Of a stretch of DNA of 64,000 nucleotides, positions 27,244 through 59,109 are shown piece by piece. The position numbers and the translations under genes were made by a program. Each line of letters starts with the position of its first letter. Within the stretch, counting starts at the first letter, position 1. Under the pieces are notes generated by a model, which ran no database searches, was not told the DNA's origin, and worked only from the letters and a program-made list of their open reading frames with translations. Origin of the DNA: Alphaproteobacteria bacterium (lineage in GTDB: Bacteria; Pseudomonadota; Alphaproteobacteria; UBA828); assembly GCA_965214705.1 (NCBI GenBank), contig OZ243972.1, positions 1,632,001 to 1,696,000 on the forward strand, in the 5' to 3' direction.

Positions 27244-28038
27244 ATGCGAAAGCCTCTTGCGACGTTGTTCATTCTGGCCATCTCGATGAGCCTGGCGGCC
27301 TGCGCCGACAACGACCGGATCACCGTCCGGGAGCTCGGAGACCGGGCCGGGCTGTCGGCGCCGGTCGAGTCGGCGGCGGAACAGGCCCTGCGGGCAACGG
27401 GCATCGTCGAGCGAAGCGACTCACTGATTATGTCCACGCACTTTGTGGAAACCGACAACCCCGACATTCCGCCATCCCGGATCTGGACGGATTGCAGCGG
27501 AGACAGCTGCACGCTGACCGATTCCCTGTCCGGCGCATCCCATACGGTCAGCCTCACCGATCTCGAGATCATGGCCGACGCCTCCGAAGCCCTCGGCACC
27601 AGGCACGGCGTCACCCTGACATGGGACGAATCTCGCCACGATGGCGCCGACGCGACGGCGCTCGGCGCTTGGATGGATCACGGCGCGTTCCTGCTCCAGA
27701 CGAACATCGCGCGCACCGAGGAAGCCGACCTCGACATCCGCTCCGCGATAGTCGTAGGCAATGCGACGGACATGCCGCTCACCGGCAGCGCGACGTGGCT
27801 CGGCCTCATGGCCGGCACGCCGGTTGCCGGCGAGGCCCGCGGCAACCGGCTGATAGGGACTGCGGCCCTGAACTACGACATGGACGCCGGCGGCGGGCTT
27901 GATGTCGCCTTCAGCGCAATCACGGATGTCGACCGGAATCGGCCGCACACGACCGCGACGATCCTGTTCCCCGACGTGCCGCTCGTCCCGGGCGGGACGT
28001 TCGAGACCGGCCGCACCGGCGACCGCATCCACGGCGCA
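27244..28038 (+). pseudogene. TbpB-like beta-barrel lipoprotein, 5' part
   Basis: Lipobox LAAC, GSATWLG motif; ends IHGA at the element boundary. Confidence 0.8.
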
Positions 28039-28269
28039 TTGAACGAAGCCGCTACGCGGAGTTAGCGGCGTAGAGTTCATTCATTTCCGAGGCGTCGCGG
28101 GTGCCGTTTGTTCTGTGCGTTCGCTTCCCGGTTGCGTCAGTGGCGCTCCGCCCGTCGGGTGGCGGATCCCCAGCAGCCTCCCGATCACCAGTGGTTAGTA
28201 TCGACCCCTGCGACGGACCGTCGCCGGATCGGTCCGGCGGCGCGCCGTCGCGATCCAGGGAGATCGATA

Positions 28270-29148
28270 ATGACCGGGACCGCGTGCGACACGAACACCG
28301 TCACCCCTCTTCGCCAGCGCATGGAGGAGCAGCTCCGCATCGCCAATCTGGCCGCGAGCACGTCCAAGGCCTACATCTGCGAGATCAAGAACCTGGCCAG
28401 GTACTACGACGCCTCGCCGGACGAGCTCGACGCCGAGCAGGTGCGCCAGTGGTACCTGGGGCGGATCGACAAGGGGCTCAGTCCGGGCACGACCAACGTC
28501 TCCTTCGCCGCGCTGAACTTCCTCTACATCGACACACTCGGCTGGCCTGACCATGTCGCCGGCCTGCGCTCCCGCAAGAAGCCCGGCAAGCTGCCGCGCT
28601 ACATGTCGGAGCAGGAGGTCGAGCACCTCATCCTTGCGACACCCGACCTCCGCCACCGTGCTGCCATTGTCACCGGCTATGGCGGCGGGCTCCGCATCTC
28701 CGAGACCTTGGCCATCAAGGTCGGCGACATCCTGTCGGAGAAGAAGCTGCTGCACATCCCCTCCGGCAAAGGCGGCACCGAGAGAATGGCACCGTTGCCG
28801 GACATCGTCATCCACTACTTGCGCGTCTACTACAGGAACATCTGGCCGCGTCCGACGAGCTGGCTCTTCTACGGCGTCTCGCTCGACAGGCCCATCGCAA
28901 CGGAGACCTTGCAGGCCGCCTTCAGGAGGGCGCGCGACATTGCCGAGCTCGACCGCAGCTACACCTTCCATTGCCTGCGCCATTCGGCGGCGACCCATCT
29001 CCTCGAGCGCGGCGGCGATATCGAGGTGATCCGGGACATGCTCGGCCATCGAAGCGCGAACACGACCCGTCACTACGCCCGCGTCACCGGCAAGATGTTC
29101 GAGGGCCTCGACCACCCGATCTCAGGCTTCGCAGCGTTGCGCAACTGA
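28270..29148 (+). CDS. Tyrosine recombinase (XerD-like)
   Basis: GLRISE, GKG, HCLRHSAATHL, LGH, Y catalytic set. Confidence 0.93.
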   Translation: MTGTACDTNTVTPLRQRMEEQLRIANLAASTSKAYICEIKNLARYYDASPDELDAEQVRQWYLGRIDKGLSPGTTNVSFAALNFLYIDTLGWPDHVAGLRSRKKPGKLPRYMSEQEVEHLILATPDLRHRAAIVTGYGGGLRISETLAIKVGDILSEKKLLHIPSGKGGTERMAPLPDIVIHYLRVYYRNIWPRPTSWLFYGVSLDRPIATETLQAAFRRARDIAELDRSYTFHCLRHSAATHLLERGGDIEVIRDMLGHRSANTTRHYARVTGKMFEGLDHPISGFAALRN

Positions 29149-29154
29149 CGGCGC

Positions 29155-29343
29155 GTGGAGGCCGAACGCGCGGGCGTGGCGGAGATCTTCCGCCGCGCCG
29201 GCGCCGCTTTCCGTGAGCGCCACAAAGGGCGCATCGACGCCGCCCGGCTCAAGGTCATGGGCGCCATCGAGGCGTGCCGCACCGCCGTGCTCGGCGGCCA
29301 CATGTACGCCTGCGAGGGCTGCGGGCGCGAGCATCCGCTCTTC
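29155..29343 (+). pseudogene. IS91-type transposase, 5' part
   Basis: Same as the N-terminus of 56412-57653 up to HPLF. Confidence 0.9.
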
Positions 29344-29451
29344 AGATACCATGAGCACGGTGGCACCGAATCGATTCTGGCGGTTAGACAAGCTCGGAGA
29401 GAAGGCCAGCACCTTCTCTCCGAGCGGAATCGTCAACAACGGAGTGGACGG

Positions 29452-30648
29452 ATGTCGGATGGTCCAGACACGACCGCGCTGACAGGCGCAAGTAGTAGCA
29501 CGATTTATGTCGCGGTGGAGATCAGCCTCAAATCGTGGATCGTTGGCGTGCATTGCCCGGATGCCTCGGGTGGCAGCATCAGCATCCACACACTGGCTGC
29601 TGCCGACACGGCGGGACTGTTGGATCTCGTCGGGTCGGTGCGGGAACGGGTGGCGAGGGAGCTCGGCGCCCGTCCTCGGGTGATGCTGACCTACGAGGCG
29701 GGCTACGAGGGGTTCTGGCTTGCCCGCGATATCGAGCGCCGTGACGCGGAGATCGATATCTTCATGAACGATCCGGCGAGCCTGCGGGTGAACCGGCGCG
29801 CCAAGAAGAAAAAGACCGACCGTATCGACGCGAGGAGGATGGTTCGGGCTCTGAAGGCATGGGACCAAGGCGATTCGGAGGCCATGTCCTGGGTGCGCGT
29901 GCCCGATGTGGACCAGGAGGATGCCAAGCGCCTGCTGCGCGAGAGGGACACGCTGATCAGCGAGCGTACCCGCGTCAACAACCGGATCAAAGGGCTCTTG
30001 CAGTTGCACGGCATCTTCGATCTGGCGCCGCGCAAGCCGGACTTCCTCGAACGCCTCGCGACCGCGCGGACGGGCTATGGGGCGCCGTTGCCGCCGCGTG
30101 CGCGGGCAGAGATTGAGAGGGCGGTGGGGATGCTTCGCCTGGTTGAGGAGCATATCGAGATGATCGAGGCCGAGAAGAGGGCCCTGCTGAAGGCTGGCCG
30201 GAAAGCCCAGGACGCGACCAATCGTGACGGGACGGCGATGATCGCGGCGCTTACGCGCATCCATGGCATCGGCCTCAATGACGCCACACTGCTGGCTGGC
30301 GAGGTGTTCTATCGGGACTTCCGCAATCGCCGGGAGTTGGGCAGCTGGGCCGGGTTGACGTCGGTGCCGTGGGCGAGCGGAGATGTCGACCACGATCTTG
30401 GCATCAGCAAGGCCGGCCCCTCGCATGTCAGGAAGCACATGATCCAGATGGCTTGGCGCTGGCTGAAGCTGCAACCGGAAAGCGCGATCACGAAGTGGTT
30501 CCACGCCTACGTCGCCAGGGATGCCGGTGGCGGGAGGGACCGGCGAGCGAGGAAGCGGGCGATCGTGGGGGTCGCGCGCAAGCTGCTGATCGCGCTGTGG
30601 CGCTATGCCACCCAAGGACTGGTGCCTGAGGGCGCCATCGTCTCCTGA
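29452..30648 (+). CDS. IS110 recombinase
   Basis: VAVEIS, YEAG, KTDRID, GIG, GLT...ASG motifs; GGAG RBS. Confidence 0.93.
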   Translation: MSDGPDTTALTGASSSTIYVAVEISLKSWIVGVHCPDASGGSISIHTLAAADTAGLLDLVGSVRERVARELGARPRVMLTYEAGYEGFWLARDIERRDAEIDIFMNDPASLRVNRRAKKKKTDRIDARRMVRALKAWDQGDSEAMSWVRVPDVDQEDAKRLLRERDTLISERTRVNNRIKGLLQLHGIFDLAPRKPDFLERLATARTGYGAPLPPRARAEIERAVGMLRLVEEHIEMIEAEKRALLKAGRKAQDATNRDGTAMIAALTRIHGIGLNDATLLAGEVFYRDFRNRRELGSWAGLTSVPWASGDVDHDLGISKAGPSHVRKHMIQMAWRWLKLQPESAITKWFHAYVARDAGGGRDRRARKRAIVGVARKLLIALWRYATQGLVPEGAIVS

Positions 30649-30980
30649 GGGCACCGGCCGAACGAACGGGAAAATACAGGAGGTTCCGACGTGGTCGGAC
30701 GCGGCCGCGGAGGATGCCGGGCAAGGCGTGTGACCGGGCAAGAGTTGGGTCGCCGCTTGGCACCGTTCTACAGATGGGTCCCGCCTCCCGGAACGTCACC
30801 ACCGCTTGGATGCGGTATTGGGGTCACGGAGCCGGCAAGCGCCGGAGTTCCGAACCGGATAAGAGCTGAGCAGCGTGGCGGATCGCTGCGTGGAAACGAC
30901 GTTCTGCCTGGACATCGGCCGCGGATTCGAGTGGAGAGATTGCGAATGCCATTGACGTAGATGAAGCCGGGCCTTGCGGA
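30649..30980 (+). ncRNA. Candidate bridge/seek RNA in the IS1111 right end
   Basis: Four short segments match target and donor halves in parallel order (see finding); boundaries approximate. Confidence 0.7.
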
Positions 30981-30993
30981 GAGAGCTCATAAG

Positions 30994-32046
30994 AACTCCT
31001 GCCGCAACCGCCACTGCCCCACCTGCCAGGGTCTCGCCGCCAACCTCTGGAGCGAGGAGCGCGCCGGGGACATCCTGCCGGTGCCCTACTTCCATGTGGT
31101 CTTCACCCTGCCCAAGGAGGTTGCCGCCATTGCCTTCTGCAACCGCAGGGTGGTGTTCGACATCCTCTTCCGGGCCGTCGCCGAGACCCTGCGCACCATC
31201 GCCGCCGATCCCCGCCACGGCGGCATGCGCATCGGCGGCACCGCGGTCCTCCATACCTGGGATCAGAAGCTCCGCTTCCACCCGCACCTGCACGTGGTCG
31301 TGCCCAACGCGGGCTTCGACGTAGACAGTGGCGAGTGGAAGACGGGGAGCACCACCTTCCTCGCCCCCGTCAAGGTCCTCGGCAGCCTGTTCCGCCGCCT
31401 CTTCCTCGAGGAGCTCGCCCGCGCCCACGGCCGGGGGGACCTGGAGTTCCACGGCACCCTCGCCCACCTCGCCAATCCCGGCGAGTTCCACGCCACGCTT
31501 GCCGCCGCCCGGGCCAGGGACTGGGTGGTCTACGCCAAGCGGCCCTTCCGCGGGCCTGAGCAGGTCTTCCGGTACCTCTCGCACTACACGCACAGGATCG
31601 CCATCTCCGACAGCCGCATCGTCTCCTTCGACGGCGAGACGGTCTCCTTCCGCCACCGAAAGCCCAAGGCGCCGGGGCAGAGAAAGCCGCGCTACGGCAT
31701 CGCCACCGTGAGCGCCGACGAGTTCATCCGCCGCTTCCTGAGGCACGTCCTGCCGGACGGCATGCACCGCATTCGCTACTTCGGCATCCTCGCCAACGGC
31801 TGCCGCGCCAGCACGCTGGAGAGAGCACGCCAGGCTCTCGGCGCCCTCGGCTGCGCCGCCCCCGAGGGAAGCGTGGACGGCGCTCGGGCCGAGCCCGACG
31901 AAGAGCCCGAGATCGGCACCGCGCCCGTGGCCTGCCCCCACTGCGGCGGCGTCATGCGCCTCGTCCGCGAAATCCGCCGCCGCCATGAGCCCCGCTCGAC
32001 GCGCGGCCCGCCGGCGCTGCCGCCGACCCACAGGGGGAAACCGTGA
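30994..32046 (+). pseudogene. IS91-type Y2 transposase, 3' part
   Basis: SCRNRHCPTC, HVVFT, HPHLH (HUH), YLSHY. Confidence 0.9.
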
Positions 32047-32308
32047 GACGCCCGCTCGCTTCGGCCCCGCGCAACGGCGCCAAAGCGCCGACGCACGACC
32101 GAACCTGTCTCCGCTTGAGCCGGGCTGACAGCCCTCGGCTCACACCCCGCTCAGTCCTCGCAGCGTGCGCCCGCATGCCTGCCGAAAGACCGGCGCGAGC
32201 GTCGATTTTATGCGCAACTCTGCTGCCGGTGGATGCCGCCTGACGCTGACATCAGCGCACTTTCCACATAGCTCAACTTCGCCTCTCGTGGCCCGCGGCT
32301 TCGTTCAA

Positions 32309-56070: not shown

Positions 56071-56411
56071 CGGCGACAGTCAGACCGGGCACGGACCGGA
56101 CAAGGTTAAGGGTTGGGCAGGCTCTCGAGAGAGAGCCTGCCCAACCCTTTTGAACGAAGCCGCGGGCCACGAGAGGCGAAGTTGAGCTATGTGGAAAGTG
56201 CGCTGATGTCAGCGTCAGGCGGCATCCACCGGCAGCAGAGTTGCGCATAAAATCGACGCTCGCGCCGGTCTTTCGGCAGGCATGCGGGCGCACGCTGCGA
56301 GGACTGAGCGGGGTGTGAGCCGAGGGCTGTCAGCCCGGCTCAAGCGGAGACAGGTTCGGTCGTGCGTCGGCGCTTTGGCGCCGTTGCGCGGGGCCGAAGC
56401 GAGCGGGCGTC

Positions 56412-57653
56412 TCACGGTTTCCCCCTGTGGGTCGGCGGCAGCGCCGGCGGGCCGCGCGTCGAGCGGGGCTCATGGCGGCGGCGGATTTCGCGGACGAGGC
56501 GCATGACGCCGCCGCAGTGGGGGCAGGCCACGGGCGCGGTGCCGATCTCGGGCTCTTCGTCGGGCTCGGCCCGAGCGCCGTCCACGCTTCCCTCGGGGGC
56601 GGCGCAGCCGAGGGCGCCGAGAGCCTGGCGTGCTCTCTCCAGCGTGCTGGCGCGGCAGCCGTTGGCGAGGATGCCGAAGTAGCGAATGCGGTGCATGCCG
56701 TCCGGCAGGACGTGCCTCAGGAAGCGGCGGATGAACTCGTCGGCGCTCACGGTGGCGATGCCGTAGCGCGGCTTTCTCTGCCCCGGCGCCTTGGGCTTTC
56801 GGTGGCGGAAGGAGACCGTCTCGCCGTCGAAGGAGACGATGCGGCTGTCGGAGATGGCGATCCTGTGCGTGTAGTGCGAGAGGTACCGGAAGACCTGCTC
56901 AGGCCCGCGGAAGGGCCGCTTGGCGTAGACCACCCAGTCCCTGGCCCGGGCGGCGGCAAGCGTGGCGTGGAACTCGCCGGGATTGGCGAGGTGGGCGAGG
57001 GTGCCGTGGAACTCCAGGTCCCCCCGGCCGTGGGCGCGGGCGAGCTCCTCGAGGAAGAGGCGGCGGAACAGGCTGCCGAGGACCTTGACGGGGGCGAGGA
57101 AGGTGGTGCTCCCCGTCTTCCACTCGCCACTGTCTACGTCGAAGCCCGCGTTGGGCACGACCACGTGCAGGTGCGGGTGGAAGCGGAGCTTCTGATCCCA
57201 GGTATGGAGGACCGCGGTGCCGCCGATGCGCATGCCGCCGTGGCGGGGATCGGCGGCGATGGTGCGCAGGGTCTCGGCGACGGCCCGGAAGAGGATGTCG
57301 AACACCACCCTGCGGTTGCAGAAGGCAATGGCGGCAACCTCCTTGGGCAGGGTGAAGACCACATGGAAGTAGGGCACCGGCAGGATGTCCCCGGCGCGCT
57401 CCTCGCTCCAGAGGTTGGCGGCGAGACCCTGGCAGGTGGGGCAGTGGCGGTTGCGGCAGGAGTTGAAGAGCGGATGCTCGCGCCCGCAGCCCTCGCAGGC
57501 GTACATGTGGCCGCCGAGCACGGCGGTGCGGCACGCCTCGATGGCGCCCATGACCTTGAGCCGGGCGGCGTCGATGCGCCCTTTGTGGCGCTCACGGAAA
57601 GCGGCGCCGGCGCGGCGGAAGATCTCCGCCACGCCCGCGCGTTCGGCCTCCAC
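56412..57653 (-). CDS. IS91-family Y2 transposase
   Basis: Zn-finger CRNRHCPTC, HUH HPHLH, YLSHY. Confidence 0.93.
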   Translation of the reverse strand: MEAERAGVAEIFRRAGAAFRERHKGRIDAARLKVMGAIEACRTAVLGGHMYACEGCGREHPLFNSCRNRHCPTCQGLAANLWSEERAGDILPVPYFHVVFTLPKEVAAIAFCNRRVVFDILFRAVAETLRTIAADPRHGGMRIGGTAVLHTWDQKLRFHPHLHVVVPNAGFDVDSGEWKTGSTTFLAPVKVLGSLFRRLFLEELARAHGRGDLEFHGTLAHLANPGEFHATLAAARARDWVVYAKRPFRGPEQVFRYLSHYTHRIAISDSRIVSFDGETVSFRHRKPKAPGQRKPRYGIATVSADEFIRRFLRHVLPDGMHRIRYFGILANGCRASTLERARQALGALGCAAPEGSVDGARAEPDEEPEIGTAPVACPHCGGVMRLVREIRRRHEPRSTRGPPALPPTHRGKP

Positions 57654-57659
57654 GCGCCG

Positions 57660-58538
57660 TCAGTTGCGCAACGCTGCGAAGCCTGAGATCGGGTGGTCGA
57701 GGCCCTCGAACATCTTGCCGGTGACGCGGGCGTAGTGACGGGTCGTGTTCGCGCTTCGATGGCCGAGCATGTCCCGGATCACCTCGATATCGCCGCCGCG
57801 CTCGAGGAGATGGGTCGCCGCCGAATGGCGCAGGCAATGGAAGGTGTAGCTGCGGTCGAGCTCGGCAATGTCGCGCGCCCTCCTGAAGGCGGCCTGCAAG
57901 GTCTCCGTTGCGATGGGCCTGTCGAGCGAGACGCCGTAGAAGAGCCAGCTCGTCGGACGCGGCCAGATGTTCCTGTAGTAGACGCGCAAGTAGTGGATGA
58001 CGATGTCCGGCAACGGTGCCATTCTCTCGGTGCCGCCTTTGCCGGAGGGGATGTGCAGCAGCTTCTTCTCCGACAGGATGTCGCCGACCTTGATGGCCAA
58101 GGTCTCGGAGATGCGGAGCCCGCCGCCATAGCCGGTGACAATGGCAGCACGGTGGCGGAGGTCGGGTGTCGCAAGGATGAGGTGCTCGACCTCCTGCTCC
58201 GACATGTAGCGCGGCAGCTTGCCGGGCTTCTTGCGGGAGCGCAGGCCGGCGACATGGTCAGGCCAGCCGAGTGTGTCGATGTAGAGGAAGTTCAGCGCGG
58301 CGAAGGAGACGTTGGTCGTGCCCGGACTGAGCCCCTTGTCGATCCGCCCCAGGTACCACTGGCGCACCTGCTCGGCGTCGAGCTCGTCCGGCGAGGCGTC
58401 GTAGTACCTGGCCAGGTTCTTGATCTCGCAGATGTAGGCCTTGGACGTGCTCGCGGCCAGATTGGCGATGCGGAGCTGCTCCTCCATGCGCTGGCGAAGA
58501 GGGGTGACGGTGTTCGTGTCGCACGCGGTCCCGGTCAT
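57660..58538 (-). CDS. Tyrosine recombinase
   Basis: Same translated sequence as 28270-29148. Confidence 0.93.
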   Translation of the reverse strand: MTGTACDTNTVTPLRQRMEEQLRIANLAASTSKAYICEIKNLARYYDASPDELDAEQVRQWYLGRIDKGLSPGTTNVSFAALNFLYIDTLGWPDHVAGLRSRKKPGKLPRYMSEQEVEHLILATPDLRHRAAIVTGYGGGLRISETLAIKVGDILSEKKLLHIPSGKGGTERMAPLPDIVIHYLRVYYRNIWPRPTSWLFYGVSLDRPIATETLQAAFRRARDIAELDRSYTFHCLRHSAATHLLERGGDIEVIRDMLGHRSANTTRHYARVTGKMFEGLDHPISGFAALRN

Positions 58539-59109
58539 TATCGATCTCCCTGGATCGCGACGGCGCGCCGCCGGACCGATCCGGCGACGGTCCGTCGCAG
58601 GGGTCGATACTAACCACTGGTGATCGGGAGGCTGCTGGGGATCCGCCACCCGACGGGCGGAGCGCCACTGACGCAACCGGGAAGCGAACGCACAGAACAA
58701 ACGGCACCCGCGACGCCTCGGAAATGAATGAACTCTACGCCGCTAACTCCGCGTAGCGGCTTCGTTCAAACACATCTGCAGTTGGGCGCGTCGATCCAGC
58801 CGATGAAGGCGCGCTGGACAGGTTCACCGTTCGTGTCTTGGGAGTCGCTATTGCGCAACCGACAACACCGCACGTCGAAGGCGACCAGATCAGGGACGAA
58901 GGCATGTCCCCCAATCCGTTCGAGATCGACGCCTACCCGCCGTCACAGGTGGCGCGGAACTCCTCACTCGAAACAATCTCATCACCGTGGCCTGGGTGTT
59001 GTTCGGCACGCAGTTAGGGCGCCGATCGGCGTTATAAGGTGTTGATGTGCTTCGATTCAGAGGGGTCAAACGGCGATGCTTAACAACAGATTACCCGCGC
59101 CGAACAACA

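Follow-up and report, generated by a model that had tools for sequence, protein, structure and literature searches.

An IS110-family insertion sequence that very probably uses its own right-end guide RNA to enter an IS91 transposase gene

Introduction

What brings an insertion sequence (IS) to one exact point inside the transposase gene of another IS? We address this question for a 1650-bp element in the window, the whole 64-kb stretch of DNA analysed here, where a sequence-only reading had proposed an RNA-guided parasite of IS91-type elements. We observed directly the anatomy of the element, the covariation of its RNA structure, the covariation of guides with targets, and repeated insertions at one site. 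On these grounds it is very likely an IS whose own right-end guide RNA aims it at the IS91 transposase gene, and which spreads through the copies of that gene.

Element anatomy and target site

Comparison of the occupied with an empty site sets the boundaries of the element to within a one-base 'A' ambiguity and indicates insertion without target duplication. The insertion point falls between TTC (Phe) and AAC (Asn) of an IS91-family transposase gene, which is split as PLF|NSCRNRHCP, just before the SCRNRHCP codons as had been proposed. The empty site, CCGCTCTTCAACTCCTGCC, was likewise found as described, in an uninterrupted IS91-type copy that also carries an upstream tyrosine-recombinase gene. 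The main features are as follows.

29344..30993, + strand: whole IS110-family element, 1650 bp (occupied versus empty site)
29344..29350, + strand: left terminal extension AGATACC, 7 nt, the first two bases AG being the family-wide core
29351..29356, + strand: left subterminal inverted repeat ATGAGC, reverse complement of GCTCAT at 30985-30990
29393..29424, + strand: left-end hairpin, 13 bp, perfect
29452..30648, + strand: recombinase gene, 398 aa (Pfam PF01548 and PF02371, NCBIfam NF033542)
30691..30708, + strand: conserved hairpin immediately 5' of the guide RNA scaffold (RNAalifold, 15 relatives)
30985..30993, + strand: right subterminal repeat GCTCAT and 3-nt extension AAG
29155..29343, + strand: IS91-family transposase, N-terminal piece (Pfam Zn_Tnp_IS91 positions 1-48)
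30994..32046, + strand: IS91-family transposase, remainder (Pfam Zn_Tnp_IS91 52-90 and Y2_Tnp)
57455..57473, - strand: empty target site inside the intact second IS91-type copy

The element is built of a 108-nt left end, the recombinase gene and a non-coding right end of 345 nt. The left extension and AG core are based on the left junctions of relatives, which read left flank-AG-AT(C/A)C(C/T)ATG. The subterminal repeat ATGAGC/GCTCAT is 6 bp long if perfect, or 7 bp with one mismatch, and relatives carry repeats of 8 bp at the matching positions (TATGGGGC/GCCCCATA or TATGAGGC/GCCTCATA). The left-end hairpin is kept in a variant of 86% identity via a compensatory double change from U-A to C-G.

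A single open frame of 497 aa (29155..30648) runs from the N-terminal 63 codons of IS91 through the left end, which has no stop codon, into the recombinase, and an insertion into istB described below is likewise fused in frame (open frame of 748 aa). Such fusion may allow expression from the promoter of the victim or may be chance, two cases being too few to argue for design.

Right-end RNA scaffold and target guides

Two matches to the target had been pointed out in the right end: GGCAAGAGTTG at 30737-30747, which agrees at 10/11 with the reverse complement of C|AACTCCTGCC, and CCGTTCTACA at 30763-30772, which agrees at 8/10 with CCGCTCTTCA. Both are present, as is every other motif listed in the sequence-only reading at the place it gave, and both first guides lead into (T)GGG(G)TC. 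Chance alone would produce the 11-mer with at most one mismatch 1.16 times over both strands of the whole 64-kb window, and about 0.003 times in the 345-nt right end. The second match needs revision, however: its CCG is an invariant scaffold triplet, the 3' strand of helix P3, and the variable guide, TTCTAC, matches at 4/6.

The scaffold structure was drawn by eye on a right-end alignment that takes 17 relatives with 50-93% protein identity from this genome, from genus mates and from metagenomes, and that resolves into a constant scaffold and variable blocks. Paired cells amount to 95.8%, versus 38-49% with partners slid by 1-3 columns, a control that is flattered by the structure having been derived partly from the very sequences scored. 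Ten of the 28 pairs have changes on both sides. The covariance model of right ends that had been suggested as a check (R1) gave 74 matches in 86 further loci and placed the scaffold in 70 of 80 metagenomic loci (relatives at 39-56%), every match lying on the coding strand just 3' of the open reading frame (ORF). Rfam 15 at E<=1 returned two chance-level matches only, neither of them to a bridge RNA family. Folded as single sequences, the right-end RNAs do not exceed shuffles in stability (z of -1.2 and -1.1); in the minimum-energy fold, guide 1 is partly paired and the target module takes a different shape.

30725..30785, + strand: target-binding module with P1, P2 and the P3 hairpin (covariation, alignment A2)
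30725-28/30782-85, + strand: helix P1 (GGCG/CGCC), 100% of cells paired, double changes present
30732-35/30777-80, + strand: helix P2 (GACC/GGUC), 100% of cells paired, double changes present
30748-30764, + strand: P3 hairpin, 97% of cells paired, double changes present
30737..30746, + strand: guide 1, GGCAAGAGTT, complement of the top strand
30766..30773, + strand: guide 2, TTCTAC and invariant AG, same sense as the left flank CTCTTC (4/6) and core

The target guides sit in an internal loop bounded by covarying helices, with guide 1 (10 nt) on its 5' side and guide 2 (6-7 nt), followed by the invariant AG, on its 3' side. Guide 1, the top-strand match, comes first in the RNA, and it faces the IS91 site with one A.C mismatch.

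Covariation of guides with insertion sites

Individual guide matches are short and single-sequence folding is non-significant, which would fit a site chosen by protein or DNA structure with coincidental matches in the right end. The guides were compared with the sites of relatives: 89 scaffold instances yielded 58 with a distinct 10-nt guide 1 and enough downstream DNA. The reverse complement of guide 1 occurs at 9/10 or better within 330 nt downstream in 18 of the 58, versus 1.1% of 3306 cross-pairings, and the best matches directly follow the right tip CATxxx-AG. On the element's own junction (three registers), guide 1 matches at 8/10 or better in 35 of 58, versus 0.8% of 3290 cross-pairings. 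For guide 2, the left end is placeable via the subterminal repeat in only 21 elements; there it matches the 6 nt left of AG at a mean of 4.38/6 (n=21), versus 1.65 for cross-pairings, and reaches at least 4/6 in 17 of 21 elements (4.8% of cross-pairings). Complementarity between guide and flank is thus element-specific across the 58 elements and shifts with the target in close variants, so that coincidence is extremely unlikely, and guides covary with targets across the subfamily as an RNA-guided choice of site predicts.

Donor-binding module, core and junction promoter

30790..30905, + strand: donor-binding module, a multiloop closed by P4, with hairpins P5, P6/P7 and P8
30790-97/30898-905, + strand: helix P4, 8 bp, closing the donor multiloop
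30814..30819, + strand: donor guide GGTATT, complementary to left-end GATACC (29345-29350)
30859..30865, + strand: donor guide ATAAG and AG, equal to the right-end tip and core
30974..30979, + strand: -35-like TTGCGG, outward-facing, with a 17-nt spacer to TACCAT (29347-29352) once circular

GGTAT (30814-30818) and ATAAGAG (30859-30865) had been matched to the circle junction, and this match stands. GGTAT is only partly in a loop, since its G, G and T lie within the covarying hairpin stem P5. GGTATT pairs with the left end through a U.G wobble at the core G, and in relatives this guide covaries with the end (GGTAT, GGAT, GAAT and GCAT with ATACC, ATCC, ATTC and ATGC). The right-tip guide covaries as well (ATAAA, ATATA, ATGTG, ATACG), donor guides GGATAAGAG, GGATAAAAG, GGATATAAG and GGATGTGAG pairing off with tips CATAAG, CATAAA, CATATA and CATGTG. 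This agreement is partly circular, because the right tip was located with help of the donor guide; the AG and the guide 1 match beyond the tip are independent of that placement. By sequence and covariation, the right end is predicted to encode a non-coding RNA with loops complementary to target and donor.

AG stands at both junctions family-wide. The window lineage has AG in the donor and AA in all four targets, with AG at the left and AA at the right junction. The end of guide 1, UU, may pair with this AA, and the G of the AG in guide 2 may face T as a wobble.

Across the joined ends, TTGCGG-N17-TACCAT reads as the putative promoter that had been proposed, and TTGAC is conserved at the -35-like position in relatives. 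A promoter and terminator scan found no sigma-70-like promoter or terminator-like site inside the integrated element. In four public runs, the contigs include the IS91 element both empty and occupied, and those of three of the four contain a joint skipping exactly 1650 bases. The end-to-end circle junction is absent from these contigs, which cannot show rare forms, and its absence is therefore uninformative on circles.

One full copy elsewhere in the genome (L009, G000:C1:1873054-1874866) has its last 165 nt repeated immediately behind it; the joint, CATAAG|AGCCGG, falls inside the donor module.

Recombinase with a glutamate at the first catalytic position

The recombinase contains DEDD_Tnp_IS110 (PF01548) and Transposase_20 (PF02371), both above the Pfam cut-off, and scores 174 bits against NCBIfam NF033542 'IS110 family RNA-guided transposase' (cut-off 140). 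Its key residues are E23, E82, D123, D126 and S309-G310, the last pair being invariant among aligned relatives. The protein departs from the D-E-D-D tetrad of the IS110 family in its first acid, with E82, D123 and D126 present. The sequence-only reading had taken this first acid to be Glu (VAVEIS), and indeed E23 aligns with an Asp of ISSso6 and is invariant in 40/40 aligned homologues and in 87/87 loci where the position aligns. As judged from the alignment, this is a conservative acid swap, not a loss.

In an AF2 model (pLDDT 82.8), E23 ends strand 1, E82 ends strand 4, and D123 and D126 precede helix 127, the usual places of catalytic acids in an RNase H-like fold. The best structural matches of the model are the ISCro4 and IS621 recombinases (PDB 8wt6, 8wt9 and 9t56; TM 0.51-0.68), which share its overall fold. 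With phmmer the recombinase matched no PDB sequence, and a profile matched only the C-terminal domain of IS621 and ISCro4, the one region in which sequence similarity to them is detectable.

A DNA search of 48 further genomes from the order did not find a close copy of the element; at the protein level, a search of the family gave relatives at 40-55% only, and a scan of genome contigs just 3 loci.

Repeated insertion into IS91 copies

The assembly (3 contigs, 7.9 Mb) contains 21 whole or split copies of the element: 14 full copies at 99.9-100% identity, 3 split copies and 4 diverged ones (97, 96, 92 and 86%). Two right-end fragments are present in addition. Nineteen of the 21 lie exactly at CCGCTCTTC|AACTCCTGCC. 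A 319-nt probe around this site matched 18 left halves, 19 right halves and 80 spanning (empty) sites, 73 of which are at least 97.8% identical; by these counts about one-fifth of approximately 92 near-identical IS91 copies are occupied.

Such a pattern could also arise from a single insertion, if the composite of IS91 and IS were then copied by IS91 rolling-circle transposition in trans with no repeated targeting. IS91 copies with a broken transposase can in principle be mobilised by intact ones, of which there are about 70 here, and the inserted elements are 100% identical. Yet the 14 occupied copies with pairable halves represent 11 IS91 haplotypes that are also found among empty copies, which largely refutes this explanation, and the 96% and 92% element variants, as well as an 85%-diverged IS91 copy, have the insertion at the identical point. 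We consider a single insertion very unlikely: the occupied copies are repeated independent insertions, not one composite copied around, and the parasite reading gains accordingly.

The IS91-family element itself, about 2.67 kb with its tyrosine-recombinase gene, has about 100 copies and makes up approximately 3% of the genome; the copies in the window span about 28000-32100 (+) and 56250-58760 (-). The 62 near-identical empty copies vary at 19 positions, of which 5 lie no further than 10 nt from the insertion point: T>C in 2 copies, G>A in 2 copies, +GA giving CTCTTCAgaACTCC, and an AAC deletion (alignment starts G000:C1:3006936, C2:16664, C3:1696389, C3:1743958, C3:1752243 and C3:294721). These clustered changes may be excision scars or escape alleles.

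Variants with other targets

Close variants of the element occupy other IS genes. The 86% copy has guide 1 AATAGGCGTT and guide 2 TTCCAT and occupies GTCCAC|AACGCCTAT, close to the C-terminal end of an IstB_IS21 gene, and an empty istB counterpart of its site is present elsewhere in the genome. In a MAG record, an 85%-identical element (L051) with guide 1 ACCACCAGTT occupies AACTGGTGG, where a DDE_Tnp_1 gene ends. The 97% copy has the same guides as the window element and has entered the P-loop codons (GTGKS|W) of another istB in antisense orientation, so one guide set has used two targets. The right junction of the 86% copy (L134, G000:C3:483685-485333) is one A short relative to the empty istB site.

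This second use of the window guides raises the question of which target came first. The istB P-loop site (IS21 family), which encodes GTGKS|W inside IstB_IS21, matches guide 1 and adjacent scaffold bases at 14 contiguous positions, where the IS91 site has one mismatch, and the 97%/96% sub-lineage with identical guides occupies both. The istB site could on this basis be the true, ancestral target and IS91 a tolerated near-match that is dominant by copy number. We regard this as unlikely, because guide 2 matches the istB site at only 2/6 versus 4/6 for IS91, and because the P-loop site has only 2 copies with 1 occupied, compared to 19 insertions in IS91. The two-target use also recalls the 'half-match' off-target insertions that 10.64898/2026.08.31.748434 reports for IS621, and such insertion would equally make the istB copy the off-target. 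In a genome scan with the idealised 16-base target, two single-copy sites fit better, with 2 mismatches, and about 20 others fit just as well, with 3 mismatches, all of them unoccupied; matched-base count alone does not predict site use.

Proposed mechanism

For RNA expression, circle formation and chemistry, the following scheme is borrowed from the family. The element would excise as a circle whose joined ends create a promoter, and transcription from this junction would produce the recombinase and the right-end bridge/seek RNA. Guide 1 would then pair with the top strand right of the crossover and guide 2 (TTCTAC and AG) with the bottom strand left of it, while GGTATT and ATAAGAG of the donor module would hold the left and right tips of the element itself. 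The recombinase, with its predicted E-E-D-D RuvC-like and Ser-Gly domains, would exchange strands at the two-base core, AG in the donor and AA in the targets of the window lineage. The site specified in this way would be the zinc-finger codons of the IS91-family transposase gene. As this site lies in a gene with about 100 genome copies, the element would spread through the IS91 copies, inactivating each one entered.

Comparison with known systems

Siddiquee et al. 2024 (PMC11187229) and Durrant et al. 2024 (PMC11208160) describe IS1111-group elements such as ISEc11, ISKpn4 and ISPa11, which resemble the present element in having a non-coding region downstream of the gene, with the RNA in the right end. 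The likeness extends to the guide order, with the top-strand match 5' of the bottom-strand match (PMC11187229), and to the extensions beyond the subterminal repeats, which in that group measure 7 (or 6) bp at the left end and 3 bp at the right end (PMC11187229) and here 7 nt (AGATACC) and 3 nt (AAG). It also includes donor-binding bases in a multiloop, often the case in that group (PMC11208160, where pairing rules are given), the lack of target duplication, and a junction promoter (PMC11187229), whose -35/-10 arrangement is here read from the sequence. Unlike the IS1111 group, the element has a recombinase of 398 aa versus 330-350 aa (PMC11187229), a subterminal repeat of 6 bp versus a usual 11-13 bp (PMC11187229; 7-17 bp in PMC11208160), and Glu, not Asp, as first catalytic residue. 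The label 'IS1111-type' given in the sequence-only reading suits the architecture, but less clearly the 6-bp repeat and the length of the recombinase. Judged by its DNA, the element is an intact, well-preserved RNA-guided IS of the IS110 family with IS1111-group architecture, and it is probably active or recently active.

IS621 and ISCro4 share, besides the fold, the two-loop guide logic with the core within the pairings (PMC11208160); they differ from the element in a left-end guide RNA, a CT core and DEDD acids. ISSso6 (25% identity over 85% of the protein length) is without match to the RNA model. The nearest named relative is the ISRel9 family (Rhizobium plasmid NZ_CP013598.1; 38% identity over 95% of the protein), which has Glu at the first acid, the same right-end scaffold (41.8 bits) and AG-flanked junctions, with other guides and another target. 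The end of the annotated ISRel9-family element (L160, 1370-2930) and that of an ISRel26 (ISNCY-like) transposase gene are about 25 nt apart.

The targeting idea is not new, since ISEc21 (IS110 type), according to PMC11187229, targets the codons that surround the second D of DDE in transposase genes of the IS3 family. ISEc21 and the present element are both RNA-guided, and both enter a conserved coding motif in the transposase gene of a different IS family; ISEc21 differs in having its guide RNA upstream of the gene, a reversed guide order, and IS3 rather than IS91 or IS21 as victim. Our literature search, with the supplementary target tables of PMC11187229 and PMC11208160 outside its scope, brought up no paper in which IS91 is the target of an IS110/IS1111 element. 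The element is a clear natural example of the mechanism described in 2024 and not a new mechanism; its novelty is limited to a new member, a new victim and instructive natural variation.

That variation has some value of its own. One genome holds a natural reprogramming series of close variants with changed guides and matching targets, including empty sites for three targets, which is useful for the pairing rules of right-end (IS1111-type) bridge RNAs, less studied than that of IS621. IS91 and IS21 are added to the mobile elements preyed on by RNA-guided IS, and the predicted Glu-for-Asp catalytic variant and the AG core could matter for engineering.

Targets of the wider subfamily

To survey the insertion sites of relatives, ORF pieces abutting the junctions of 53 elements were scanned, and 21 had a Pfam match. 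Fifteen of these 21 are IS genes, a count biased by kinship of the elements, contig ends and IS-rich neighbourhoods: IS91, IstB (twice), DDE_Tnp_1 (twice), rve, rve_3, Transposase_20, DUF4096, DDE_Tnp_IS240, DUF772, HTH_21, DDE_3 (twice) and an HTH_29-type gene. One more is an integrase N-terminus, and five are ordinary genes. The sequence-only reading had suggested such a survey. It is possible, if rather doubtful, that a large unnamed subfamily of E-E-D-D bridge recombinases (AG core, right-end guide RNA; ISRel9 the only named member here) specialises in the conserved motif codons of other IS (IS91, IS21, IS3, IS4/5, IS6, IS630, IS110) and that in this genome it and IS91 are locked in an arms race.

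This genome also carries two more families of the subfamily (53-55% identity), with 3 copies (G000:C1:1327134, C1:2642223, C3:618310) and 4 copies (C3:533389, C3:526355, C1:4108028, C3:1762712), and one of these families sits beside or within another IS110-family transposase gene. The three split copies of the element (G000:C2:520096-522847, C3:1715128-1717879 and C3:687936-690687) are themselves interrupted by an insertion of about 2.75 kb with ends GTAAGCGGTA... and an 8-bp target duplication, a candidate IS66-family member by the resemblance of its ends.
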